Below are positions 324-13,165 of a stretch of 13,165 nucleotides of DNA, piece by piece; within the stretch, counting starts at the first letter, position 1, and each line of letters begins with the position of its first letter. The position numbers and the translations under genes were made by a program. Origin of the DNA: an uncultured bacterium. GTDB lineage: Bacteria; Verrucomicrobiota; Kiritimatiellia; RFP12; UBA1067. Where the stretch lies: positions 1 to 13,165 of the forward strand of contig CACYEO010000086.1 in assembly GCA_902773475.1 (NCBI GenBank), written 5' to 3'. The notes under the pieces were generated by a model. The model did no database searches, was not told the origin of the DNA, and worked only from the letters and a program-made list of their open reading frames with translations.

Positions 324-353
324 TTGACAACAGGAATAAAGAAATAGTATCAT
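324..353 (+). promoter_or_regulatory. Putative sigma70-type promoter with a -35 TTGACA at 324-329 and a -10 candidate TAGTAT/TATCAT at 345-353, giving a spacer of 15-18 bp. It is followed by an SD-like AAGGA at 372-376 and an ATG at 383.
   Basis: There is a perfect -35 hexamer and a near-consensus -10 in the AT-rich leader immediately upstream of the first gene, with appropriate spacing to the RBS and start codon. Confidence 0.4.
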
Positions 354-2589: not shown

Positions 2590-2606
2590 AGCGGCGCTTG
2601 CAGGAA

Positions 2607-3923
2607 ATGACAGACGGAGACCATGCAATCTGCGGAAAGTGCGGCGCCCGCAACGCGGCGGACGCCAATTTCTGCATGTCGTGCGGCGCGAGGATGGTAA
2701 GCGCGCCGCCGTCTGGCGCACCGTCCGCCGCCCCTCCCCCGCCCGCAGCCGCCGCGTTCGCGCCGGCCGCGGTTGGCGAAGGCCGTCCCTGCCCGCCGCC
2801 AGGCGATTCCGCCGTGCCGTTCGTTTTCGCCGTATGCTCGCCGGATGCGTTCTGCAAAGGGCAGGCCGGCGTGTTCGTGCTGCGCTTCCGCGCGCTCGCA
2901 GACGTGTTCGAAAGCGTGTCATTCGCCCTTGTGCACGGGCGGGACGCGGTAAGGAACGCGGCGATAGACGGCCGTCCCGGAATCTGGGAGCACGAAGTGA
3001 TAATGGATGTGCAGCCTGAAACGCCCGGGCAGACCGGATTCGTTTTCGAAGTCCGCTGCCGGCGCGACGGATACGCTGATGACGAGTGGGAGGTCTATGC
3101 ATCCGCGCCGGTCATAGTGACCGTTGACGTCGCTCCGGTGGCGCAGAATCTGAACATAGACTTGGGCGGCTTGAACGTCATTGCCGGACAGTCCGACCGC
3201 GCGGCGGATTCAAAGGCGGTCAACAACCAGGTTTTCAACATATCTTCGTCTGCCGTGTTCGACCCCAATTCCCCGCGGTACAGGAAGGGTGTGCGGGCCG
3301 GGGACTGCAGGATGCATTTGAAATCCGCGCCGCGAAGGCTCACGCTTCATTCGTCTTCTTCTTCCAGGACGCTGCTTCTTCTTTCGAAGAATGAAATATC
3401 GTTCGGGCGCAAAAACGAAGCGACCGATGTGTCGATAAGGTGTTTCGGCGACGGTGGAGAATGCGATATCCCGTTATCCAAGATGGTTTCGCGCAGGCAT
3501 TTCGCCATATCCTACGACGGCATGGAATGCCGCATTTCCGATTTGGGATCGACGAAAGGCACGGTTTTCGACGGAAGAACGGTCGCGCCCGGAATGCCGA
3601 AAAGGATCAAGCCCGATGTGCGGCATTCGCTGACGGTCGCCATAATGCCGGACTTTTCCATGGATGCATATTGCGACCGTCTGGGCATAACGACGGGACT
3701 TTCGATAGACAGGACCGACGGTGCGCGGCAGCGCGTGTTCGCCGTGTGGCGCATGGGCGTGCCGGCCGGAAACGGCGGCGGGGAATTCGGCTGGAACGGA
3801 AAGTATTTCGTGTTCAGCCGCGCCGGCGGCGGCTGCAATCCGCTGCTGCCTGGAATGTCCGTTGAAATCGACGGAGAAACCTACGATGTGCAGGTGTACA
3901 ACCAGCCGTATGGAACGGAGTGA
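2607..3923 (+). CDS. Zinc-ribbon FHA-domain protein. It has an N-terminal CxxC..CxxC zinc ribbon, a Pro/Ala-rich linker, a beta-rich middle region of unknown function, an FHA domain (approx nt 3397-3650) and a C-terminal region of unknown function. The start may instead be the TTG at 2598.
   Basis: The ribbon is CGKCGARNAADANFCMSCG. The linker is PPSGAPSAAPPPPAAAA. The FHA signature is ISFGRKNEATDVSI...VSRRHFAISYDGMECRISDLGSTKGTVFDG (G-R, S-RRH-A-I, DLGSTNGT pattern). Confidence 0.85.
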   Translation: MTDGDHAICGKCGARNAADANFCMSCGARMVSAPPSGAPSAAPPPPAAAAFAPAAVGEGRPCPPPGDSAVPFVFAVCSPDAFCKGQAGVFVLRFRALADVFESVSFALVHGRDAVRNAAIDGRPGIWEHEVIMDVQPETPGQTGFVFEVRCRRDGYADDEWEVYASAPVIVTVDVAPVAQNLNIDLGGLNVIAGQSDRAADSKAVNNQVFNISSSAVFDPNSPRYRKGVRAGDCRMHLKSAPRRLTLHSSSSSRTLLLLSKNEISFGRKNEATDVSIRCFGDGGECDIPLSKMVSRRHFAISYDGMECRISDLGSTKGTVFDGRTVAPGMPKRIKPDVRHSLTVAIMPDFSMDAYCDRLGITTGLSIDRTDGARQRVFAVWRMGVPAGNGGGEFGWNGKYFVFSRAGGGCNPLLPGMSVEIDGETYDVQVYNQPYGTE

Positions 3924-3945: not shown

Positions 3946-4398
3946 ATGAAAATCACGAAAAAACTGGCGGCGGCATTCGTCCTTGCCGCGATCGCGGGAT
4001 GCACGACATGTCCCGTTTACAAAGTGAACGCAACGGCTGCGACGCCGGGAGCGGAAAACCTCGCGCGCGGGATAGCTTTCGACGTGAACGGCGGGCTGCT
4101 TGCAAAGGGGTATCCGATGCTCGCGCCGGGCGCCAGACTGAAATCCGGCCAGCGGCTCGTTGCGATCGACCTTGAGGTGGAACGGCGCGAAACGGCGTCG
4201 CTGGGCGACTGGCGCACTTACGAAGGCGTCGTGAGGGCGAGCGTGACCGACGGCGGCAAGCCCGCCGGAGCCGCCGAGTTCCGCGCCGGAGGGGAACGCG
4301 CCGACAACGAAACGGACGCCGAGCGCGGAGTGCGCGAGGCTCTTGCAAAGAGAGTCGGCGAATGGGTGGGCGGAGTGTCCGTCCCGGAAACCAAATGA
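3946..4398 (+). CDS. Small lipoprotein of about 150 aa with a signal peptide and a lipobox.
   Basis: The N-terminus is MKITKKLAAAFVLAAIAGC, with an n-region, an h-region and the lipobox IAG|C. A strong RBS AAAAGGAGAA lies 7 nt upstream. The six-frame ORF starting at 3721 is an upstream extension that overlaps the preceding gene. Confidence 0.75.
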   Translation: MKITKKLAAAFVLAAIAGCTTCPVYKVNATAATPGAENLARGIAFDVNGGLLAKGYPMLAPGARLKSGQRLVAIDLEVERRETASLGDWRTYEGVVRASVTDGGKPAGAAEFRAGGERADNETDAERGVREALAKRVGEWVGGVSVPETK

Positions 4399-4437
4399 CG
4401 ATTGCAGTCAAATGACATCCATAAAGGAGAAAACGCG

Positions 4438-5676
4438 ATGAAATTCCTTGCAGTATTCGCAATGGCCGCTGCCGCCGCAGGCGCTGCTTTCGCCGATTGC
4501 GGCAAATTCAACGATTTGGAAAAAGAGGCCGTGCGCAAGGCCGCCGCGGAAATCGCGGCGTCCCTGCGCAAGTCGGACAAGTGCTCCGGGCGCGCGGTGA
4601 CGCTGCTGCCCGTCAACGGCGACAAAGACGGATATGCGGAGCGTCTGCTCACCGGCGCGCTTGTCAATTCCGGCATGACGGTCGTTATGCCGAACGATGA
4701 AAACGACGTCCGTTTCAAGAGAATCCTCGCCAGCATCAAATGGGACGGCCGCCAGGTGAAACTTGGATCGGTGGATACGTCGACCGTGGACGAACTCGGA
4801 AGGCTCCGTTCCACGCAGGTGTTCATCGAGGCGGTTCTCGACATCAAGAGCGAAGAAAAATCCGCCAAGGCCGATTTGCACGTTCTTTCGTACGTGGTGG
4901 CCACAAAGTCGTATCTCGACGCCGCGAACGGGGTGGGCAATGCCGAGGCTCCGGCTGAGCCCCCTCCCCCGCCGCCGCGGAAAGCATGGACCGAAACCGC
5001 GGTGCAGAACGAGATCGTTCCGCTGCGCGTGAAGGTGGACACCCGCGCGAAAGACGCGGAATCGGAAGGCGTGGCCCGCCGGCTTGATACGGCGGTGCGG
5101 GGCGCGCTCGCGAAGCTCGGCTTCAGGCTCGCCGGAGAGGACTGCGACGCGAAAACCGTCGCGCTCGACGACGTCACCGTCACGCTCGACGTAGGGCGCT
5201 CCGTGTTCGACAAAGCCGGAGAATACGAAATCCATGAAGCCAAAGTTGACTTGTCCGCCGTAAAAAAAGCCGGCGCCGGAACCCTGCTCGTCGGAACGGC
5301 GGTGTTCGACGAACGCGGGGACCGCAAGCTCGGCAGCTTCGCGGCAGACAGGAGTCTCGCGGAGAAACTCGAAGGGCCGGCGGTGGAATGGCTCAAGAAG
5401 AACATCGTGCAGAACACCGTGAAGACGGCCGCCGTGCAGTTTGAAGTCCGCCTTGCAAAGCCGATTGCCGTCGCGGGCGACATGTCCGTCGTGGAAAAAT
5501 TCATGCAGCCTTTCGCGCTGCTCGGCGGCGTGCGGCTGTACAGGCTCGACGCGCGCGACGACGAAGCCGGCATGCTTCGGTTCTTCGTCGTGTACGAAAC
5601 GGAAAAATTCCCGGGTGGTCTGGTGCCGGCGTATTTCGCGTCCGCTCCCGAGCTTGGAGAACTGCTTGACAAGTGA
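4438..5676 (+). CDS. Secreted or periplasmic protein with a signal peptide and two repeated domains of unknown function. It is a paralogue of the next gene.
   Basis: The N-terminus is MKFLAVFAMAAAAAGAAFA|DCG, preceded by RBS AAAGGAG. The motif VTLLPVNGDKDGY...W (a CsgG/LpoB/TolB-N-like first-strand pattern) is present. There is an internal PAEPPPPPPRK linker. It aligns clearly with 5718..6812 (VTLLPVNGDKDGYAERL...FKRILASIKWD..LGRLRSTQVFIEAVL versus VAVLPVAGDRDRYIAGRL...FGEILKEIAWD..FGRLQAAQVLLTATV). Confidence 0.8.
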   Translation: MKFLAVFAMAAAAAGAAFADCGKFNDLEKEAVRKAAAEIAASLRKSDKCSGRAVTLLPVNGDKDGYAERLLTGALVNSGMTVVMPNDENDVRFKRILASIKWDGRQVKLGSVDTSTVDELGRLRSTQVFIEAVLDIKSEEKSAKADLHVLSYVVATKSYLDAANGVGNAEAPAEPPPPPPRKAWTETAVQNEIVPLRVKVDTRAKDAESEGVARRLDTAVRGALAKLGFRLAGEDCDAKTVALDDVTVTLDVGRSVFDKAGEYEIHEAKVDLSAVKKAGAGTLLVGTAVFDERGDRKLGSFAADRSLAEKLEGPAVEWLKKNIVQNTVKTAAVQFEVRLAKPIAVAGDMSVVEKFMQPFALLGGVRLYRLDARDDEAGMLRFFVVYETEKFPGGLVPAYFASAPELGELLDK

Positions 5677-5717
5677 AACCGCGGCGTTCGCGGATACAAA
5701 TGAAAGGATTGCAAAAA

Positions 5718-6812
5718 ATGAAAAAGACGATTTTGGCTTTGGTTCTGCCGTTGCTCTCCGCCGCAGCTTTGGCTTCCGGCGGGAGCGAAGATCTCATGCG
5801 CCAGACGGTTGATGCGGCGTTCAAGGACGTGCAGGACGCGATTGCGGCGTCTCCGGTTCCCGCCGGCGCGACCGTGGCCGTCCTGCCCGTGGCGGGCGAC
5901 CGCGACCGCTACATCGCGGGACGGCTCAAAAACGCCGTGACCGCGGGCGGGCGCAAGTGCGTAGAAGACAAGGACGATCCGGTTTTCGGTGAAATCCTCA
6001 AGGAAATAGCCTGGGACGAACGCAAAGAAGACATACTCGACCCGGCCACGGTGCAGAAATTCGGCAGGCTCCAGGCCGCGCAGGTTCTGCTGACCGCTAC
6101 CGTGCGCACCTTGGAATCGAACGAGCGATATTCGTTTTTCGAGTTCGAGCTGCACGCCACGGAAATCGCCACCAAACGGCATCTTTGGGGCGACGTGTTC
6201 GAAAAGCATCTCTACATGCCCGGGCTCGAGGACGCGGCCGGCGAGTCGGGAATCCCCGCGCCTCTTCGCGATGCGCTGGCGTCGGAAATGCGCGCGAAAA
6301 TCGAAGCGTCATTGAAAAAATCCGGGAAACTTTCGAACATCGGCAAAGTCGCATACCTCCCCCTTGCGGGCGACTCGAAGGGATACGTATTTTCGATAGT
6401 GCGCGATGCGGTTTCGTCCACGTCCATGTCGCTCGTCAATCTCGACGTCGCGACCCGCGGAGAAGCCCGCATGCGCCTGCGCGACAGGCGCGTCGCGGCG
6501 GATGCGCTTCTGAGCGGATCGGTGCGCGAGCTGTCCGGGAGCGTGGTCGAGGATTCGCCCGCCGGAAAGCGCTTCCGCTACCGCGCCGAGGTGCAGCTGT
6601 GCATCGAAGGGACCGACGGCGCCGCACTCTGGAGCGATACGATATCCATCGACGTCGAACGGGAAGAGGAACTCGGCATCTGGGGCAGACTGTGCAAACT
6701 GTTTCCGTCCCTTGCAAGCAAGCCGTGGCTTGCGGTCGTCGTTCCGGTCTGTCTGGTCCTGGGCGTCTTTGTTTTCATATCCGTCTTGCGCGGCATGACG
6801 CGCGTGAGGTGA
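5718..6812 (+). CDS. Secreted paralogue of the previous gene. It has a signal peptide, two VxxLPhxGDxxxY-type domains and a C-terminal transmembrane anchor.
   Basis: The N-terminus is MKKTILALVLPLLSAAALA with RBS AAAGGA. It has the motifs VAVLPVAGDRDRY and VAYLPLAGDSKGY. The C-terminus KPWLAVVVPVCLVLGVFVFISVL is hydrophobic. An alternative in-frame ATG at 5700 lacks an SD. Confidence 0.8.
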   Translation: MKKTILALVLPLLSAAALASGGSEDLMRQTVDAAFKDVQDAIAASPVPAGATVAVLPVAGDRDRYIAGRLKNAVTAGGRKCVEDKDDPVFGEILKEIAWDERKEDILDPATVQKFGRLQAAQVLLTATVRTLESNERYSFFEFELHATEIATKRHLWGDVFEKHLYMPGLEDAAGESGIPAPLRDALASEMRAKIEASLKKSGKLSNIGKVAYLPLAGDSKGYVFSIVRDAVSSTSMSLVNLDVATRGEARMRLRDRRVAADALLSGSVRELSGSVVEDSPAGKRFRYRAEVQLCIEGTDGAALWSDTISIDVEREEELGIWGRLCKLFPSLASKPWLAVVVPVCLVLGVFVFISVLRGMTRVR

Positions 6813-6816
6813 GACG

Positions 6817-7701
6817 GTGGATGTGAAAACCGAAACATGCTGCGTCTGCGGGCGGGAACTTCCGAACCGCTACGCCGTGGCCGGCCGCTGCGATGCGGAC
6901 GGCTGCGGCGCGCCGTTCTGTTCGCTCCACTGGCACGACGGCAACGGGAAGTGCCCTGCGCACGGACGGGAAGAGAAAAAAGAATCCGGCAATCGAGGAG
7001 GAGAGGGAATGTCCGAACATGAAACGATAGAAGGCGAAACCGCCGCATCCGCAGTCCCCGCCGCGCCGCCGCCGCAGGCGGAGCCGCGTACGACCGGGAA
7101 AACAGTCGCCGCGGCCGCGCTGAAAGGCTCCGTCTCCATAGGCAGAAGCGCAGTCGCGTATTTCAAGAAACTGTGCGGAATACGCGATCCCAAGGCCGCG
7201 CTCGCGGAGGCGGAAGCGTCCCTCGCCGCGGTAAGAGAGCGCAGAGAGCCGCTTTCGGCGCGGTACGAAGAGCTTTATTCGAAGATTGCCGCCAAAAAGA
7301 AACTCCGCGACGGCGCTTCTCCCGCAAGGCGCAAAATGCTGGACATGGAGCTTCGCACGCTTCTTGCGGAATACAAGAGCATAGAGCGCGAGGTGTCCGC
7401 GCTGTACAGGAAAGAAGAAATGGTCGTCACGGTCAGAGGCCGCATGAACGAACTGGTCGTACAGGGCCTGCCGATGCCGCGCGTCGAAGACGTCGACCGC
7501 CTTGCAGACGACATTTCCGACGCCCTCGACACGGATGAAGACCTTGCCGATGCCGTGGGCGAGCTGGACAAGATCGGCGCGGGACGCGAGCGCCATGCGC
7601 CGAATCTGGACGAGGAACTCGCGGAATTCGAGGAATCGGCGCCGGAGGGCGAAACCGCGCGGCTCAGGCCGGAAAACCCCGCCGCCACTGTCGGGGAATG
7701 A
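6817..7701 (+). CDS. Zinc-ribbon protein with a Snf7/ESCRT-III-like (or PspA-superfamily) helical domain. The helical half is basic at its N-terminal end and strongly acidic at its C-terminal tail.
   Basis: A GTG start overlaps the upstream stop (GTGAGGTGAgacgGTG), with a GAGGTG SD. The N-terminus is CCVCG..CDADGCGAPFCSLHWHDGNGKCPAHG. The central segment has KKLRDG..RRKMLDMELRTLLAEYKSIEREVSALYRKEEMVVTVRGRMNELVVQ followed by VEDVDRLADDISDALDTDEDLADAVGELD. This resembles yeast Snf7 ...NMDIDKVDELMQDIADQQELAEEIS. The acidic tail is LDEELAEFEESAPE. The ESCRT-III assignment is inferred from sequence similarity and charge asymmetry, without profile search. Confidence 0.7.
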   Translation: MDVKTETCCVCGRELPNRYAVAGRCDADGCGAPFCSLHWHDGNGKCPAHGREEKKESGNRGGEGMSEHETIEGETAASAVPAAPPPQAEPRTTGKTVAAAALKGSVSIGRSAVAYFKKLCGIRDPKAALAEAEASLAAVRERREPLSARYEELYSKIAAKKKLRDGASPARRKMLDMELRTLLAEYKSIEREVSALYRKEEMVVTVRGRMNELVVQGLPMPRVEDVDRLADDISDALDTDEDLADAVGELDKIGAGRERHAPNLDEELAEFEESAPEGETARLRPENPAATVGE

Positions 7702-7719
7702 CGATCCGGAGGTGACCGA

Positions 7720-9111
7720 ATGGCGTTGTTCATGAGCGAAGCCGAAAGAAGGCGCGATGCGCGGCGGCGCCGCCGCCGCGCTTTGCGCGAAGTCCGCAAC
7801 GCCGTGGATGCGGCGAGGTTGAAGCGCGATGAAATATGCAAGCGCCGCGCGGATGAATGGAAGGCCGCGCGGGCTGCGCTTTCCGCCGGAGACGAGGCCG
7901 ACGCGCGGCGGCGGCTCGAGTCGGTCAGGACTGACGATGCCGCGCTGAAGCGCCTCGACGCCCGGCTGGCCCGGTTCGAGGCGCTTGAACGCGAAATGGA
8001 ATGCGCCGACGCCGATGCGGCGTTCGACGAGGCGTCGGCGTCTCTTTCTCGCTTCGTAAAGGCTCCGGAGGAGGCCGGGGAGGCCGAATCCGCGCCGCCG
8101 CCCTCCGTGGACGAACTGCTTGAACTTCTCGCCAGAGAACCTGAAACCGAAAAAACCGAAGGAACGGCCGGCCGTCCGAAACCGCCGCCGGCGGCATCGT
8201 CTCTGAAGGTGGACGGCGATGCAGACGCGTCGTCGAAATGGGTCGCGACAAAGCCGTCCGCCGTGCGCCTTGAAGACGTTGTCGGTCTTGACGATGCCAA
8301 GACGGCCGTGATGGACGCGCTCGTCAATCCCGTGAACCATCCCGACATATACAAAACGCTCAAGGTCGCGCCCGGAACAGGGCTTCTCCTCTACGGCCCG
8401 CCGGGAACAGGCAAGACGCTTTTCGCGAAAGCCGTCGCCAACGAAATGGGGCTGCCGTTCCTCGACGTCCGCTGCGACAGACTGAAAAGCAAATACGTAG
8501 GCGAGACCGAAAAGAACGTGGCCGAAATGTTCCGCGCCGCCCGAGCGCTCGGCAGATGCGTGCTGTTTCTTGACGAATGCAACGCGATTCTTTCCCGCCG
8601 CGGAGACCAGAAGGTCTGCATGGTGGAGCAGTTTCTTGTGGAGCTTGACGGGTTCTCGACGTCCGACGCGCAATTGTTCGTCTTGATGGCCACGAACCTT
8701 CCCTGGACGCTCGATCCCGCAATCACGCGCAGCGGCCGCCTGAGCGAAGCCGTTTACGTAGGACTGCCTGACGAGGCCGCGCGGCGCAGGCTGATTGCAA
8801 ACGCGTTCAAGGACGCACCTCTGGCGGCGGATGTGGATCTCGACTCTCTCGCCGCCCGCACGGAGGGGTTCAGCGGCGCCGATCTGGCGGCCAAGGGCGG
8901 ACTTTGCCACAAGGCCAAGACGTACGCGGCCCGCCGCTGGGTGGAGCGCCGTACCGGCGCGCCGGCGAAAGACGGCCCGGCGTGGGACGCGGTCGAGCGG
9001 GTGACGGCTGCGGATGTCGAAAAGGCGCTTGCGGGAACCGTTCCGGTCGCCAGTTCGGCGGCGGATATCGTGCAGCGCAACAGGGAATTTTCTCTCAAGA
9101 AAGAGGTGTAG
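7720..9111 (+). CDS. AAA+ ATPase of the Vps4/katanin ('meiotic') clade with an N-terminal Arg-rich helical domain that may be MIT-like.
   Basis: RBS GGAGGTGA lies upstream. The Walker A region is [48 protein letters not shown] (compare Vps4 [26 protein letters not shown]...[22 protein letters not shown]). Walker B is [11 protein letters not shown]. The SRR/arginine-finger region is ILSRRGD...FLVELDGF. The clade-typical sequence is [20 protein letters not shown] (Vps4 GATNIPWVLDSAIRRRF). Confidence 0.9.
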   Translation: [463 protein letters not shown]

Positions 9112-9114
9112 CGC

Positions 9115-9690
9115 ATGGCCTGGAAACTTGACGACAGCAGCGTCGGCCGCGAATTGAAGACCGGCGCCGGACCGAGCAAGAGGGAAAGATCTCTTCCTGC
9201 GGACGTCGCTTACGACGTGCAGCGCGTGCTGTACAGAAAATGGATCATCGCCGCGATAGAGTATCTGCTGAAGTTCGCCTTCTTCGCCGGACTGCTGTGG
9301 CTGGCGTGGCGCGGCGTGAAGTCGCTGCTTCCGGAAGACACCCCGGCTCCGCAGGCCCCGGCCGCCGTCCAGGCGGTTCCCGATGCACCGGCCGCGCAGG
9401 CGGCCGCCATAGGCGCGCCCGCAGTGCTCGGCCTCGCCCTGGCGGTGCTGCTCCTCCCCGTGATGACGATATCGTTCATAAGGACGATGGTTGCAAAGCG
9501 GTCGAACAGAGTGAACGCGTTCACTTTGGGCGTGTATACCGCGATAGACATGATCCTGGCGTATTTCATGGTAGGCGCGTCGCTTGAAACCGCCGTCTCC
9601 GCCGTGCTTTTCACCGGGGCGTCGTTGCTTTCGCTGATATACAACATGACTGTGATGAACTATGCCGTGAAACTCGAAGACGGAAAGTGA
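9115..9690 (+). CDS. Small integral membrane protein with 3-4 predicted TM helices and unknown function.
   Basis: RBS AGAGGTG lies upstream. The hydrophobic segments are IIAAIEYLLKFAFFAGLLWLAW, VLGLALAVLLLPVMTISFI, FTLGVYTAIDMILAYFMVGA and AVLFTGASLLSLIYNMTVM. Confidence 0.7.
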   Translation: MAWKLDDSSVGRELKTGAGPSKRERSLPADVAYDVQRVLYRKWIIAAIEYLLKFAFFAGLLWLAWRGVKSLLPEDTPAPQAPAAVQAVPDAPAAQAAAIGAPAVLGLALAVLLLPVMTISFIRTMVAKRSNRVNAFTLGVYTAIDMILAYFMVGASLETAVSAVLFTGASLLSLIYNMTVMNYAVKLEDGK

Positions 9691-9701
9691 AAGGCTGGCA
9701 A

Positions 9702-10667
9702 ATGGGCAGGCTTGACGAGATAGAAGCGCGCATCGACGCGCGCATGGCGGATATCGACAACCGCATTGACGCGATAGTCGGCGGGAACGGAACCGTGCCT
9801 CCAAAGGCAGGCTCCGCGGATACGCACAGGGGCTTCGCTCCGTTTGCGGAATCGCAACAGCCGGGAACCGCGCCTGGGATCCGCGGAATCGGGACGGCGG
9901 GCCGCGGGTCCGCGAGGCGCGTCGGACTGTGCGTGGGTTTGAACACCGTAGATTCTTCGGCATATCCAGGATACACCGTTCCGCCGCTTTCGGGCTGCAT
10001 CGCAGATGTGGAACGTCTCATGTGCGTGTTGAACAGGCTTGAATTCGAGGCCGCGAAACTTGTGGACGGACAGGCGACATGCGCCAATCTCTACAATGCC
10101 GTCAAAAAACTGACTGCCGTGTTGGAACCCGGAGATCTGTTCGTGCTGCACGTGTCCGGACACGGCGGACGGGTGAACGGCACGGGCGAGAACTGGTGTC
10201 TGTACGACGGGCTGGCGTGGGATTCCGACATCGTCTGGCTGTTTTCGCGCTTCCGTCCCGGCGTCCGCGTTCTTGTCATAAACGACCAATGCCATTCCGG
10301 CGGCATCTTCCAGTCCCGGAAGGCCGATGCGCCGTCTCCGTTCGGCGAACTGTGCAGGGCCGACGGACGCCCGGCGGACTGGGACGCCGGCGCCGCCGTG
10401 GCCGGGAAGGATTTCCCGATGCTCATCCAATTCGCCGGATGCCGCGCCGAGCAGACCAGCATCGACGGACTCGCCGGGGGAACCTGGACCCAGGCGCTTG
10501 TCAATGCGCTTGACGCCGCCGTTTCGCAGAATGCATATCTTACTTACAGGCAGTGGTTCGACTGCGCGTTTGCAAGCCCTGCGCTCCAGCGCGGGCGGCA
10601 GGATCCGCAGTGGGTGGAGAGTGCGGGCGTGACGGATGAATTCCGCGGTTGCGCGGCGCTTTTCTGA
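9702..10667 (+). CDS. Caspase-like cysteine peptidase (C14, metacaspase/orthocaspase-like) with a short N-terminal coiled-coil. An alternative GTG start at 9687 overlaps the upstream stop.
   Basis: The sequence runs VGLCVGLNTVDSSAYPGYTVPPLSGCIADVERL...LVDGQATCANLYNAVKKL...GDLFVLHVSGHGG (catalytic His in SGHG, nt ~10161)...GVRVLVINDQCHSGG (catalytic Cys in D-x-CHSG, nt 10290-10292). This is the metacaspase-type D[AS]CHSG signature. Confidence 0.85.
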   Translation: MGRLDEIEARIDARMADIDNRIDAIVGGNGTVPPKAGSADTHRGFAPFAESQQPGTAPGIRGIGTAGRGSARRVGLCVGLNTVDSSAYPGYTVPPLSGCIADVERLMCVLNRLEFEAAKLVDGQATCANLYNAVKKLTAVLEPGDLFVLHVSGHGGRVNGTGENWCLYDGLAWDSDIVWLFSRFRPGVRVLVINDQCHSGGIFQSRKADAPSPFGELCRADGRPADWDAGAAVAGKDFPMLIQFAGCRAEQTSIDGLAGGTWTQALVNALDAAVSQNAYLTYRQWFDCAFASPALQRGRQDPQWVESAGVTDEFRGCAALF

Positions 10668-10683
10668 CAGCGGGGGCATTGCG

Positions 10684-11997
10684 ATGAAACATGTTTTCGA
10701 CAGCAGGGATTTTTTGGCGTCCGCCAATACTGAGCGGCGCGCCGACGGAATGCGGCCGGACGTCAGAGACGCTCCGGCACAGGACGGAAAGGTTCCACAG
10801 TGGATGACCGCATCGCTTGCAAGAACCGTGATCGTCACGCTTGCGATAGGAGCGATGCTGTATTTCGTCTTTCAAAACGAGTTCCTTTCCCGTCTGGGCA
10901 ATTGCGTGCTTGCGGCGTTGTTCGTGCCTCTTTTGAGCGAACTCGTCGCCGGGCTTCTGCGCAGGAAAAACGTGCAGCGCGTTTCGGGCGTGCGCGCGAT
11001 TGCGGCATGCGACAGGAAATACGTGAAATTCGCCTGCTTTGCGCATCTGCTTCTCGCAGCCGTCCTTGCGGCATTCATCGCGATAGGATTCTGGAACGGA
11101 AGGAGCAAGTCCGGGGCGGACGTGGCGAAAGTCTCTGACGGACAGCCTGCCGGGGCCCCGGCGGAAACAGCGCCTGAACCTGAAGCGCCCTGTTCCGGCA
11201 GACTTGCAAAAGCCGGCGCCGCGAAAGTCTCGCCCGGGCAGATAAAGGCGTATTTGACGCCTTCAGACGCCGAGGTGGAACAATTGTACCAAATGGTCGT
11301 CGCGGCTCCGTTCGTCGCCGAGAACCTGCAGTATCGCGACCGCCTTGCGAACATTCCGTTCGTGTATATCGCCACGAACGATGTTGTCAATGCCTCTTCG
11401 CTTCGAAATGTCGTGGAGAAGAACGGAGAAAAGTCGCTCGTGTTCCATACGGTGCTCTTCGGCGGCGCGGCGCGGTACGCCCGGCTCGTCGGCCTCGCGG
11501 CCGCTCTGCAGGACTCCGGACGCGGGGACATGCTCAAAAAGTTCGTGGCCGCGATGCCTAAGCGCTTCTGCGGCGTCTGCGACGAAGAGTCCTGCGAAAA
11601 ATTCATAACGGACAACGGATTGGACGAAGCACTCGCAGACGAGAAAATCCGGCTGCGCGCCGTGTCCTATTCCTCCGGCACGATAATAAGCATTCTCGCG
11701 CACGAGTGCGGACATCACGCCCTCGGGCATCTGCTGGGCTTTCCCCGGAAAGAGAATCTGTCCATCGACCGGAACCAGGAGCGGGAGGCTGACTCTTTTG
11801 CGTCGTCCGTCATCAGTGCAAGTCCGTTCGGAGAGTTCATATTCGCGGGAACCCTGTTTTGGCACTATGCAGTCGCCATGCAGTCGGAGGACGGCCGGTC
11901 TGCGGCTGGCGACCATCCGCATTCCAGAGAGCGTTTTGAGAATTTCGTGAAATCCAACCGGGAAAAAGCGGCGGCGATGGGAATAACGCTGGAATGA
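10684..11997 (+). CDS. Membrane-anchored zinc metalloprotease, M48/M56-like (HExxH...ExxAD). A longer in-frame start at 10636 would overlap the caspase gene.
   Basis: N-terminal TM helices are ARTVIVTLAIGAMLYFVF, CVLAALFVPLLSELVAGLL and FAHLLLAAVLAAFIAIGFW. The zinc-binding site is ISILAHECGHHALGHLLG (nt ~11701-11730), and the downstream QEREADSFA resembles the third zinc-ligand Glu motif of M48 peptidases. Confidence 0.8.
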   Translation: MKHVFDSRDFLASANTERRADGMRPDVRDAPAQDGKVPQWMTASLARTVIVTLAIGAMLYFVFQNEFLSRLGNCVLAALFVPLLSELVAGLLRRKNVQRVSGVRAIAACDRKYVKFACFAHLLLAAVLAAFIAIGFWNGRSKSGADVAKVSDGQPAGAPAETAPEPEAPCSGRLAKAGAAKVSPGQIKAYLTPSDAEVEQLYQMVVAAPFVAENLQYRDRLANIPFVYIATNDVVNASSLRNVVEKNGEKSLVFHTVLFGGAARYARLVGLAAALQDSGRGDMLKKFVAAMPKRFCGVCDEESCEKFITDNGLDEALADEKIRLRAVSYSSGTIISILAHECGHHALGHLLGFPRKENLSIDRNQEREADSFASSVISASPFGEFIFAGTLFWHYAVAMQSEDGRSAAGDHPHSRERFENFVKSNREKAAAMGITLE

Positions 11998-13165
11998 CTG
12001 ACGAAACATTGAGCGATGCTGTGACGCTTGACGGCGGGAATGACCGGATTCTCGCCGGGCGCTATCGCATATTGAAACAGCTCGGCGCAGGCGGCATGGG
12101 GTCGGTCTGGCTCGCAGAGGACATGCAGTTAGACAACAAGCTTTTCGCAATAAAGATGCTGCCGCAGGTTGTCGCTTCCGACAAGGAAGCCGCCAACTCG
12201 GTCAAGCGCGAAGCGAAAGTCGCGATGAAGCTTTCGCATTCCAATATCGTCGTTTTGCGCGATTATGTCGAAAACGGCGGCAATCCTTTTTTGCTGATGG
12301 ATTATGTCGAGGGCATGCCCCTGTCATCCTGTCTTGCGGATTGGGGACGGCTTTCTCCCGAAGAAACAATCGCTCTTCGCGCTCCTGTCGCCGCCGCCAT
12401 AGACTATGCGCACACGCAAGGCGTGATACACCGGGACATAAAACCCGGCAATATAATCGTCCGCGCAAAAGACGTCACGCCGTTCGTGCTGGATTTCGGC
12501 ATCGCGCGCGATGTGCATGAAAGCATGTCGCGAATGACCGGCAAACAGCCGTCGGGCACATTGATGTACATGTCGCCGGAGCAGATCAACGGCGAACTCC
12601 CCGCAAAGGCGCACGACATATATTCGTTCGCCGCCACGGTGTACCAGTGCCTTGCCGGAAAACCGCCTTTCAGCAGGGGCGACATAACCCACCAGATTCT
12701 CGACAACCCTCCCCCGCCGTTGCCTCCGGGATGCTCTGGCAGGCTTGGCGCGGCGGTAATGGCCGGTCTGGATAAAAATCCGGCTAAACGGCCTTTGTCG
12801 TGTACTAATCTGCTGCGGGGAATAATTCCGGACGGCAAAAAACCGCGGCGCTTGCTAAACAACATGCTGCCGCGCCCTTCCAAAAAAAGGATATTGCCGT
12901 TTTTTATCACGGGCGTTCTTGTTTCATTGATTGCCGGCGGTGTATATTACGGTTTGTCTAAACAATGGAAAACCAGTGATGGAAATGCCGTTCCAAAGCA
13001 CGGCGACACGAAGACAATCACTCTTCCAGACAGAGCGACGACGGAAATGGTATACGTCGAGCCAAAGCACGGCGACACGAAGACAATCACTCTCCCCGGC
13101 GGAGCGACGATGGAACTGATATATGTCGCGCCCGGCTCTTTCACGATGGGAAGCCCTTCTTTCGA
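11994..13165 (+). CDS. Hanks-type Ser/Thr protein kinase with a TM segment and an extracytoplasmic FGE-sulfatase/SUMF1-like domain. It is 3'-truncated by the window edge.
   Basis: I translated this myself, because it has no stop in the window and is therefore missing from the ORF track. The ATG overlaps the upstream TGA (ATGA). Kinase motifs are LGAGGMGSVW (G-loop), FAIKML (VAIK), VIHRDIKPGN (catalytic loop, nt ~12428), LDFGIA (DFG) and YMSPE (APE). The TM segment is ILPFFITGVLVSLIAGGVYYGL. The start of the FGE-type domain is MELIYVAPGSFTMGSP. Confidence 0.9.
   Translation, partial: MTDETLSDAVTLDGGNDRILAGRYRILKQLGAGGMGSVWLAEDMQLDNKLFAIKMLPQVVASDKEAANSVKREAKVAMKLSHSNIVVLRDYVENGGNPFLLMDYVEGMPLSSCLADWGRLSPEETIALRAPVAAAIDYAHTQGVIHRDIKPGNIIVRAKDVTPFVLDFGIARDVHESMSRMTGKQPSGTLMYMSPEQINGELPAKAHDIYSFAATVYQCLAGKPPFSRGDITHQILDNPPPPLPPGCSGRLGAAVMAGLDKNPAKRPLSCTNLLRGIIPDGKKPRRLLNNMLPRPSKKRILPFFITGVLVSLIAGGVYYGLSKQWKTSDGNAVPKHGDTKTITLPDRATTEMVYVEPKHGDTKTITLPGGATMELIYVAPGSFTMGSPSF
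12993..13130 (+). repeat. In-frame tandem duplication of a 69-bp (23-codon) unit inside the kinase gene.
   Basis: CCAAAGCACGGCGACACGAAGACAATCACTCT occurs at 12993 and again, identically, at 13062. The remainder of the two copies is diverged (PKHGDTKTITLPDRATTEMVYVE versus PKHGDTKTITLPGGATMELIYVA). Confidence 0.85.

Follow-up and report, generated by a model that had tools for sequence, protein, structure and literature searches.

A candidate ESCRT-III/Vps4-like operon in an uncultured Kiritimatiellia bacterium, with a putative Snf7-type hairpin joined to its AAA ATPase

Contig CACYEO010000086.1 (assembly GCA_902773475.1), from an uncultured bacterium of the Kiritimatiellia, carries two adjacent genes, one for a zinc-domain protein with a helical domain (6817-7701, here called protein A) and one for an AAA ATPase (7720-9111). 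The whole stretch of 13,165 bp, referred to as the window, is the entire contig of a metagenome-assembled genome (MAG); its closest named relatives are MAGs of Kiritimatiellae and Lentisphaerae. [quoted passage not shown] For both statements taken together, the probability is put at roughly 0.65.

An initial annotation had proposed that the two genes encode a Snf7-like protein and a Vps4-clade ATPase. The sequence features it listed for 6817-7701 and 7720-9111 were all located by motif search where it had placed them, on the + strand, and its view of the two genes as a functional pair of an ESCRT-III-like protein and an AAA protein gained support, the pairing being conserved in very divergent relatives. 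The finding appears real and goes beyond a simple gene pair: the clearest predicted Snf7 homology is inside the ATPase gene itself.

Predicted Snf7-Type Hairpin at the N-Terminus of the ATPase

The first part of the ATPase (residues ~3-140, nt 7726-8133, + strand) is a predicted Snf7-type hairpin, composed of helices alpha0-alpha3 and a short conserved helix of 11 residues. It was recognized by homology to protein B, a protein of ~215 aa encoded between the A-type and AAA genes in related loci. The domain aligns with the B family over 142 columns (hhalign; 99% probability, E 3.5e-18), the hidden Markov model (HMM) of the B family matches residues 8-121 of the ATPase open reading frame (ORF) at an E of 2.3e-19, and BLASTP gives an E of 7e-12. 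Aligned with nine ESCRT-III proteins, the fused domain reaches a P of 4.8e-4 over 118 columns, compared to 0.066 for the reversed control.

B is separate from the AAA gene in all 33 related genome loci, and no separate B gene was found by HMM mapping in the window. Because the fused form is common to 15 aligned homologues, 60-81% identical to the window ATPase, the fusion is not an assembly artifact. By homology, the alpha0-alpha3 hairpin of B is taken to have replaced, in the lineage of the window, the small helical N-domain of the unfused ATPases, so that the ATPase would be covalently joined to an ESCRT-III core. No published description of the operon or of an ESCRT-III-AAA fusion was found in the literature searched, in which the architecture of an ESCRT-III hairpin followed by an AAA cassette is so far unreported.

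The initial annotation had read this Arg-rich, helical N-domain as MIT-like, which does not hold. A profile scan gave no MIT match at E<=10, and comparison with the MIT domains of VPS4A, VPS4B, yeast Vps4 and CdvC gave a P of 0.25 (hhalign). The AlphaFold2 model contains two ~50-residue helices (H7-55 and H59-110) and no three-helix bundle of ~75 residues. What occupies this position is instead the predicted Snf7-type hairpin, from a gene that is separate in the 33 loci. The unfused ATPases have a helical N-domain of ~75 residues, for which VPS4B MIT domains, matched over the full length at E 0.5-7, make up 5 of 12 weak PDB matches. With hhalign, this domain reaches a P of 0.008 against MIT, compared to 0.03 for the reversed control, and the CdvC HMM aligns the unfused relatives from residue ~18 to the C-terminus, with N-domain and cassette continuous. 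These suggestive similarities indicate that the N-domain of the unfused ATPases may be MIT-like.

Protein B in Related Genomes

Protein B can be recognized, from several profile comparisons, as a Snf7-type ESCRT-III protein. Pfam Snf7 is the top match for all four B proteins scanned, in the best case (E 5.5e-5) aligning residues 27-193 with positions 7-169 of the 171 of the model. When a profile of four B sequences was searched against all PDB sequences, the only significant matches were to yeast Snf7 (E 4e-4 to 1e-3), over alpha1-alpha4. The hhalign comparison gives a P of 6.6e-7 against Snf7, CHMP4B, CHMP6 and Vps20, and of 1.6e-8 against nine ESCRT-III proteins; none of 100 block-shuffles of Snf7 matched the real score. 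The ESCRT-III reference sequences used in these comparisons were entered by hand rather than taken from database records; yeast Snf7 is the one among them that was compared with its PDB sequence (one mismatch). Against PspA, hhalign found nothing, nor was PspA_IM30 matched in the Pfam scan of B. The N-terminus of B is CHMP-like (MGxxxLFKSK), and an RLxxLL motif is present at the C-terminus.

Protein A

Protein A is encoded on the + strand from a GTG start and consists of 294 aa. In the AlphaFold2 model (46-sequence alignment, pLDDT 80), an eight-ligand zinc domain (residues 1-55, nt 6817-6981, pLDDT 87-97) is followed by a disordered linker (58-90). The ESCRT-III-like helical domain, of ~180 residues (nt 7087-7629, delimited with AlphaFold2 and hhalign), starts with two short basic alpha0-like helices (92-120). 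These precede a hairpin of alpha1 (125-166) and alpha2/3 (169-216), alpha4 (223-255), which is acidic, and a helix resembling alpha5 that is short and conserved (264-271, L264-x3-L268-x2-F271). Residues 223-249 (nt 7483-7563) read VEDVDRLADDISDALDTDEDLADAVGE, and residues 264-274 (nt 7606-7638) read LDEELAEFEES. The basic N-terminal half and acidic tail pointed out in the initial annotation were confirmed, the isoelectric point being 10.0 over residues 91-216 and falling to 4.1 over residues 217-294. As modeled, the order of the helices, their lengths and this charge asymmetry fit ESCRT-III.

The helical domain aligns colinearly, from alpha1 to alpha5, with the alignment of Snf7, CHMP4B, CHMP6 and Vps20 (hhalign; P 1.6e-4, 203 columns). 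When distant relatives are added to protein A, the P against the Snf7-family alignment improves to 2.8e-5 over 206 columns, with reversed controls at 0.03-0.04. When the Snf7 alignment was shuffled 100 times in heptad blocks, the real score of 40.1 was never approached (null maximum 23.4). The correspondence of residues 223-249 with the alpha4/alpha5 region of Snf7, already proposed in the initial annotation, was reproduced independently: hhalign pairs this segment with alpha4 and LDEELAEF with alpha5. In the PDB, the sole natural match of the family profile is CHMP4B (E 0.052). Pfam Snf7 matches 5 of the 46 family members, weakly and colinearly (best E 0.022; 14.8 bits, with a cut-off of 27.3).

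A phmmer search of the PDB with protein A returned zero matches. The alignment of PspA, Vipp1 and LiaH gave P values of 0.005-0.16 against A3, A5 and A7, marginally better at most than the reversed controls (0.05-0.63). Of the proposed identity as a Snf7/ESCRT-III protein, the full-length colinear match stands, while the curated Pfam Snf7 threshold is not reached. Protein A probably belongs to the ESCRT-III superfamily, on evidence that is sub-threshold though consistent.

A search of 1.84 billion representatives with the profile of the helical domain retrieved just 105 proteins related to protein A, to none of which Pfam gives a name. The most distant of them, ~200 aa long and devoid of the zinc domain, have an amphipathic helix at the N-terminus and L-x2-RL-x2-L-like motifs at the C-terminus. 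A further, word-indexed homologue search with these zinc-free proteins gave only 10 matches. The effector-associated domain EAD9 was matched weakly in 21 of 46 family members, over a helical stretch of 25-30 residues; these sub-cut-off matches were treated as spurious.

In the zinc domain, residues C8, C11, C25, C30, C35, C46 and H49 are invariant in 46 homologues. Because of this invariant domain, the GTG at 6817 is taken as the real start rather than an internal ATG. Several database gene calls of the family begin at an internal Met (window position 7009; e.g., P0001, 230 aa) and lose the zinc domain, and many MAGs probably carry faulty annotations of the family.

The HMM of the zinc domain matches, besides A, only the helix-turn-helix (HTH) protein of the same locus, in the window with an E of 1.8e-5, and with 8e-5 and 2.5e-7 in the related loci L001 and L003. 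The domain is thus shared by the C-terminus of the HTH protein (nt 578-712) and the N-terminus of protein A (6817-6981), with no other ORF matched per locus. Its appearance is that of an adaptor domain specific to the system. By analogy to PspA-PspF, it suggests that the ESCRT-III-like protein is physically tied to transcription.

AAA Cassette

The ATPase has 463 aa and its gene (+ strand) starts 18 nt after that of protein A. A classic-clade AAA cassette (residues 180-410) and a C-terminal helical extension (411-463) cover nt 8257-9108. HMM scans had been suggested in the initial annotation. Pfam AAA (1.7e-36) and AAA_lid_3 (2.6e-8) were matched, while Snf7 and PspA_IM30 in protein A and MIT in the ATPase gave no match in the window. 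The Walker A motif GPPGTGKT (226-233, with K232), the Walker B motif FLDE (283-286, with D285/E286), the pore loop SKYVGETEK (257-265, with Y259-V260-G261) and a 12-residue motif at 324-335 with the sensor-1 residue N326 are present, and TRSGR (336-340) holds the Arg fingers R337 and R340. Judged from these motifs, the protein is an intact single-cassette classic AAA ATPase, in which all catalytic and pore-loop residues are kept. C-terminal helices are modeled at 430-459 (AlphaFold2), and one relative shows a weak Vps4_C match (E 0.082).

In a neighbor-joining (NJ) tree of 274 columns with 200 bootstraps, the bacterial ATPase family is monophyletic (94.5%) and sister to the group of Vps4, CdvC, katanin and spastin (79.5%), apart from CDC48 D1/D2, PAN and FtsH. 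With Foldseek, the D2 domain of p97 and Vps4 of M. sedula are found at an equal E-value level (~1e-20 to 1e-19), the latter with a TM-score of 0.86-0.87 on the target. For the ATPases of the unfused relatives, CdvC ranks second or third among the NCBIfam models. The motifs are mixed: SKYVGETEK and TN-x-PW resemble those of the meiotic clade, and the second region of homology (SRH) contains R-S-G-R as in CDC48 and FtsH, not RRR as in Vps4. Membership of the Vps4 clade is moderately supported by these comparisons and unproven. Because of the architecture in relatives and the gene linkage, it is concluded that the ATPase probably works like Vps4.

Related Loci and Distribution

A scan with the B profile over one genome per species identified 33 loci, all in MAGs, and nearly all of them from Lentisphaerae/Victivallales, Kiritimatiellae or Verrucomicrobiota. 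By HMM mapping, the AAA gene adjoins B in 28 of these loci and an A-type gene is present in 25. The resulting triad consists of an A-type protein, with or without the zinc domain, of B and of an AAA ATPase of 367-400 aa, and is kept among proteins with just 16-40% identity.

Two types of operon were distinguished. The first, that of the window, contains genes for the HTH protein, a zinc-ribbon-SPFH protein, an FHA protein, lipoproteins, A, B and the AAA ATPase, with or without a metallopeptidase and a caspase. The second contains a papain-like peptidase, a zinc-free A, B, the AAA ATPase, a membrane protein and caspases. Examples of the latter are L005 (5593-10513), L008 (6680-11203) and L042, where a large Peptidase_C1 protein is encoded 5' of A-B-AAA; L008 also encodes caspase proteins with leucine-rich repeats (LRR).

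Some loci show further particularities. In L009 (9384-14056, Lentisphaerae-type), two paralogous AAA ATPases of the family are each flanked by proteins of ~200-217 aa. These flanking proteins escape all A and B HMMs and may represent ESCRT-III-like partners that have diverged further. In L001 (Lentisphaerae bacterium ADurb.Bin082), the operon is followed at 13186-16704 by a gene whose product combines a zinc ribbon with a Ser/Thr kinase and an FGE-sulfatase domain, which recalls the kinase partners in archaeal ESCRT loci. The sole B-family match outside the PVC superphylum is L040, on a 4.6-kb contig of a Candidatus Kapaibacterium MAG; because this contig is short, horizontal transfer or a binning error is possible.

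Alternative Explanations

Several observations weigh against a bacterial ESCRT-III/Vps4 machine. No curated model (Pfam, NCBIfam, PADLOC) names protein A, which has no Snf7 or PspA_IM30 match at E<=1. A profile mixing protein A with its distant relatives retrieves GCN4-type coiled-coil noise from the PDB and no ESCRT-III, and direct profile comparison of the A and B families detects no similarity. The Pfam Snf7 score of B is itself below the gathering cut-off (23.3 vs. 27.3 bits). As the fused N-domain's own profile returns no ESCRT-III from the PDB, its Snf7 assignment is transitive, made through B. For the ATPase, NCBIfam ranks CDC48 (196 bits) above PAN (174), FtsH (167) and CdvC (162), all far below the cut-offs (650 for CdvC), and the Foldseek identity to p97-D2 (35-36%) is higher than to M. 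sedula Vps4 (30-31%). The tree was built by NJ from few taxa, with several references entered by hand. The Vps4/katanin type favored over FtsH/CDC48 by the initial annotation agrees with the sister position in the tree, and not with the NCBIfam ranking, the p97-D2 identity or the SRH. Finally, every carrier is an uncultured MAG, and the system is known from sequence alone.

Membrane remodeling may also not be the end function, because conflict systems typically have variable proteases of this sort (caspase, papain-like, trypsin, HExxH). A protease-centered, abortive-infection-like system could then be imagined, in which the AAA protein serves as an all-purpose unfoldase or as a regulator, the helical proteins report envelope or phage-induced damage as sensors or scaffolds, and the proteases, by cleaving cellular targets, are the real output, any ESCRT-III ancestry being incidental to function. 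The protease partners do differ between loci, with a caspase and an HExxH peptidase in the window, a trypsin in L001, and Peptidase_C1 and caspase-LRR proteins in L005/L008. The sharing of a zinc adaptor domain between components recalls the logic of effector-associated domains (PMC7159879), and the distribution is patchy and limited to MAGs. PADLOC gives weak matches to the mad1 HTH and the IetA ATPase, which are of generic AAA/HTH similarity, however, and no system model fits. The invariant core is the A-B-AAA triad with SPFH and FHA, several loci have no protease within reach, and the system looks vertically coherent in one superphylum, unlike the usual scattered defense islands. Such a conflict role, which is compatible with an ESCRT-like mechanism and not exclusive of it, is considered unlikely as an explanation. 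IetAS and the other anti-phage systems of PADLOC were rejected as candidates: only the AAA (IetA 3e-37, TRIP13 1e-13) and the HTH protein (mad1 2e-10) match, with zero partner components.

It is also conceivable, though distinctly improbable, that protein A is a zinc-ribbon coiled-coil adaptor, analogous to archaeal CdvA or to ESCRT-I-like proteins with a zinc ribbon and a coiled-coil hairpin, which would bring the true ESCRT-III element (the fused hairpin or, in relatives, the free B) to either the membrane or the SPFH scaffold. The absence of profile similarity between A and B, the lack of a curated Snf7 or PspA call and the coiled-coil noise of the mixed profile speak for this reading, and zinc-ribbon coiled-coil hairpin adaptors occur in archaeal ESCRT loci (10.1101/2024.02.06.579148). 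The alignment of protein A with Snf7 is, however, full-length, colinear and far above the shuffled and reversed nulls, CHMP4B is the sole natural PDB match of the family, and the helix lengths, the charge asymmetry, the alpha0-like helix and the zinc-free relatives of ~200 aa all suit ESCRT-III.

A chance association of an ordinary coiled-coil protein with an ordinary CDC48/FtsH-like AAA protein, the Snf7 resemblance being compositional, is hardly credible: the AAA protein is generic by Pfam with CDC48 scoring best, and marginal E-values come easily with coiled-coil profiles, but the triad persists at 16-40% identity, Snf7 is the sole significant PDB match of B and comes without coiled-coil noise, the fused domain matches B at 99% probability, and the shuffle nulls never reach the real scores.

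Proposed Mechanism

If the operon encodes an ESCRT-III/Vps4 counterpart, protein A would use its basic alpha0/hairpin region to polymerize at the inner membrane, on the side of the cytoplasm. The zinc-ribbon SPFH scaffold would probably organize the assembly sites, and the FHA protein together with the lipoproteins of the periplasm would probably gate them. Recruitment of the ATPase would take place by co-polymerization through its own Snf7-like hairpin, not by contacts between an MIT domain and MIT-interacting motifs (MIM). Once hexamerized, the ATPase would thread protein A through its pore, as Vps4 does with its substrate polymer, and ATP would in this way drive the turnover or constriction of the polymer. 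Through the shared zinc domain, transcription could follow the assembly state of protein A, much as in PspA-PspF, and the caspase and the metallopeptidase might act as output or processing enzymes. The physiological role could be envelope repair, vesicle formation or a conflict response of the abortive-infection type.

Comparison with Known Systems

The arrangement resembles the archaeal and eukaryotic ESCRT-III/Vps4 systems (CdvB/CdvC; Snf7/CHMP and Vps4) in having Snf7-type gene(s) directly 5' of a single-cassette classic AAA gene with a C-terminal helix. A basic hairpin with an acidic C-terminal half, CHMP-like N-termini and MIM-like C-terminal Leu motifs are likewise features of those ESCRT-III proteins, and the bacterial ATPase family branches next to Vps4, katanin and spastin in the NJ tree. 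Unlike in these systems, the host is a PVC bacterium and the sequences are beyond the reach of curated models. The window ATPase also differs from Vps4 by the ESCRT-III hairpin in place of MIT and by a CDC48-like R-x-G-R in the SRH, and one of the ESCRT-III-like subunits carries a fused zinc domain, which a transcription factor has as well. The cassette has its best HMM score and highest identity with CDC48/p97 D2, which shares the R-x-G-R of the SRH and the C-terminal helix. In contrast to CDC48/p97, the window ATPase has a single cassette and no double-psi-barrel N-domain, is separate in the NJ tree and has an ESCRT-III-type protein as its partner.

Parallels in gene content are offered by the euryarchaeal ESCRT loci described by Makarova et al. 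2024 (10.1101/2024.02.06.579148), which contain an SPFH-coiled-coil-Zn-ribbon protein, FHA proteins, kinases and a Vps4-like ATPase without MIT. The loci Meth_adaptin, Halo_FHA and Halo_adaptin share with the present ones the combination of ESCRT-III and a Vps4-like ATPase with zinc-ribbon-SPFH, FHA, Ser/Thr kinase (here in L001) and HTH/winged-helix proteins, and Halo_adaptin offers a precedent for a non-MIT Vps4-like ATPase. Linkage of the ATPase to ESCRT-III, the second criterion of that study, takes here the form of the B-AAA adjacency in 28 of the 33 loci and of the fusion in the window. Different from the euryarchaeal loci, no adaptin-like, ESCRT-I or ESCRT-II domains were detected, and periplasmic lipoproteins and proteases are present instead. 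According to the same study, no ESCRT components can be identified in bacteria.

In bacteria, the superfamily is mainly represented by PspA and Vipp1. A 2025 review (PMC7619361) notes that a Vps4-like ATPase appears absent in bacteria and that the PspA systems do without one. Operons with PspA, SPFH and zinc-ribbon proteins are known in Firmicutes, e.g., YdjFGHI of B. subtilis with the SPFH protein YdjI (PMC11237479). The present operon has in common with the PspA/Vipp1 systems a putative ESCRT-III-superfamily protein in an envelope-associated bacterial operon, with an SPFH partner and zinc ribbons, and possibly, as in PspA-PspF, a tie between this protein and the operon's own transcription factor. 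It differs in that A and B align with the Snf7 branch and that a dedicated classic AAA ATPase is present.

The statement of the initial annotation that bacteria have the superfamily mainly as PspA/Vipp1 agrees with the mainstream view (PMC7619361; 10.1101/2024.02.06.579148), although sporadic bacterial Snf7 and Vps4-like genes (e.g., ACB74714.1) were noted in other contexts by Ravi et al. 2024 (PMC11237479). These cases are similar to the present one in that Snf7-clade proteins, and a Vps4-like ATPase such as ACB74714.1, occur in bacteria. The accession ACB74714.1 is presumably verrucomicrobial. In contrast to the loci described here, snf7 is reportedly replaced there by a gene for a TPR-6TM protein, or Snf7 carries a transmembrane segment and is encoded in ABC-transporter operons. 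The main text of that paper, its supplementary tables aside, mentions no triad, no coupling of a zinc domain with an HTH protein, no operon of SPFH, FHA, lipoprotein and protease genes, and no fusion.

Current reviews divide the superfamily into a bacterial PspA/Vipp1 part and an archaeal and eukaryotic Snf7/CdvB part (PMC7619361; 10.1101/2024.02.06.579148), a split that the PVC operon would blur. The operon also bears on the timing of the partnership between ESCRT-III and Vps4, with an accessory set (zinc-ribbon-SPFH, FHA, kinase, HTH) that mirrors the euryarchaeal loci, and it touches the long debate over eukaryote-like membrane biology in the PVC superphylum. The chances are about even that a genuine ESCRT machinery of the Snf7 branch, with two ESCRT-III paralogues, a Vps4-like ATPase and SPFH/FHA/HTH accessories, exists in PVC bacteria (Lentisphaerae, Kiritimatiellae, Verrucomicrobiota), being ancient or acquired early from archaea, and that in the window the disassembly ATPase is built into the polymer as an ESCRT-III-AAA fusion. 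If true, this would overturn the claimed absence of Snf7-type ESCRT-III and Vps4 in bacteria and provide a bacterial model for the mechanics and origins of ESCRT. The fusion can be regarded as a natural experiment on the recruitment of the ATPase, by covalent co-polymerization as opposed to MIT-MIM binding.

Organization of the Window

The 11 genes are all located on the + strand, between ~383 and 11997, and are tightly spaced or overlapping (ORF list). A sigma-70-like promoter (TTGACA-18-TATCAT, 11 of 12 consensus matches) is predicted from the consensus only at 324-353 (+ strand), 30 nt 5' of the first gene. Just 5' of its -35 element, tandem direct repeats occupy 173-248 of the + strand: two copies of the 15-nt unit TGAGTGTTTGAGTTG at 173-202 and three copies of the ~16-nt unit TGGAAATGTTGCCAGT at 201-248. 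From their position, these repeats may be operator sites for the regulator encoded by the first gene.

This regulator (383-712, + strand) is an HTH_17 DNA-binding protein (Pfam 2.6e-17), with the Cys/His zinc domain at its C-terminus (residues 66-110). In the product of the second gene (766-2589, +), a long coiled coil rich in Glu and Ala accompanies two zinc ribbons and an SPFH/Band-7 domain (Pfam Band_7 2.8e-11, Zn_Ribbon_1 6e-10); the gene keeps its position in the operons of related loci. A zinc-ribbon and FHA protein, conserved in related loci as well, is encoded at 2598-3923 (+; Pfam FHA 4.3e-8, Zn_Ribbon_1 5.7e-7). Three predicted exported proteins or lipoproteins follow (3946-4398, 4402/4438-5676 and 5673-6812, all +), identified by signal- or lipobox-like N-termini in their translations. 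The second and third of them (4402-6812) are paralogues, as seen from reciprocal phmmer matches across loci, and their position is conserved; the third ends with a transmembrane helix at its C-terminus. A weak Pfam match to LpoB (0.0024) is the sole family signal of the exported proteins.

Downstream of the ATPase gene, a multi-pass membrane protein of 191 aa is encoded at 9115-9690 (+), as judged from the hydrophobic segments of its translation; a Pfam scan gave zero matches. Homologues were found with phmmer 3' of the AAA gene in L005, L007, L008, L034, L038 and L042. The idea that this protein is the counterpart of the middle gene B was ruled out by BLAST. The caspase-like C14 peptidase (9687-10667, +; Pfam Peptidase_C14 1.1e-13) has intact catalytic His (HVSGHG) and Cys (DQCHSGG) motifs. 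The last gene (10636-11997, +) encodes a membrane-anchored HExxH metallopeptidase (HECGHH), with a weak Peptidase_M48 match around the HExxH (E 0.027) and homologues in L003, L035, L037 and L041. Neighboring genes overlap by 4 nt at 5673-5676 and at 9687-9690, and those for the caspase and the metallopeptidase by 32 nt (10636-10667), which is consistent with translational coupling along the operon.

Scans of the window for tRNA genes and Rfam families returned nothing, also for the lower-GC 3' end of the contig. There, beyond the operon, a 69-nt unit occurs twice in tandem at 12993-13130, with 87% identity between the copies.

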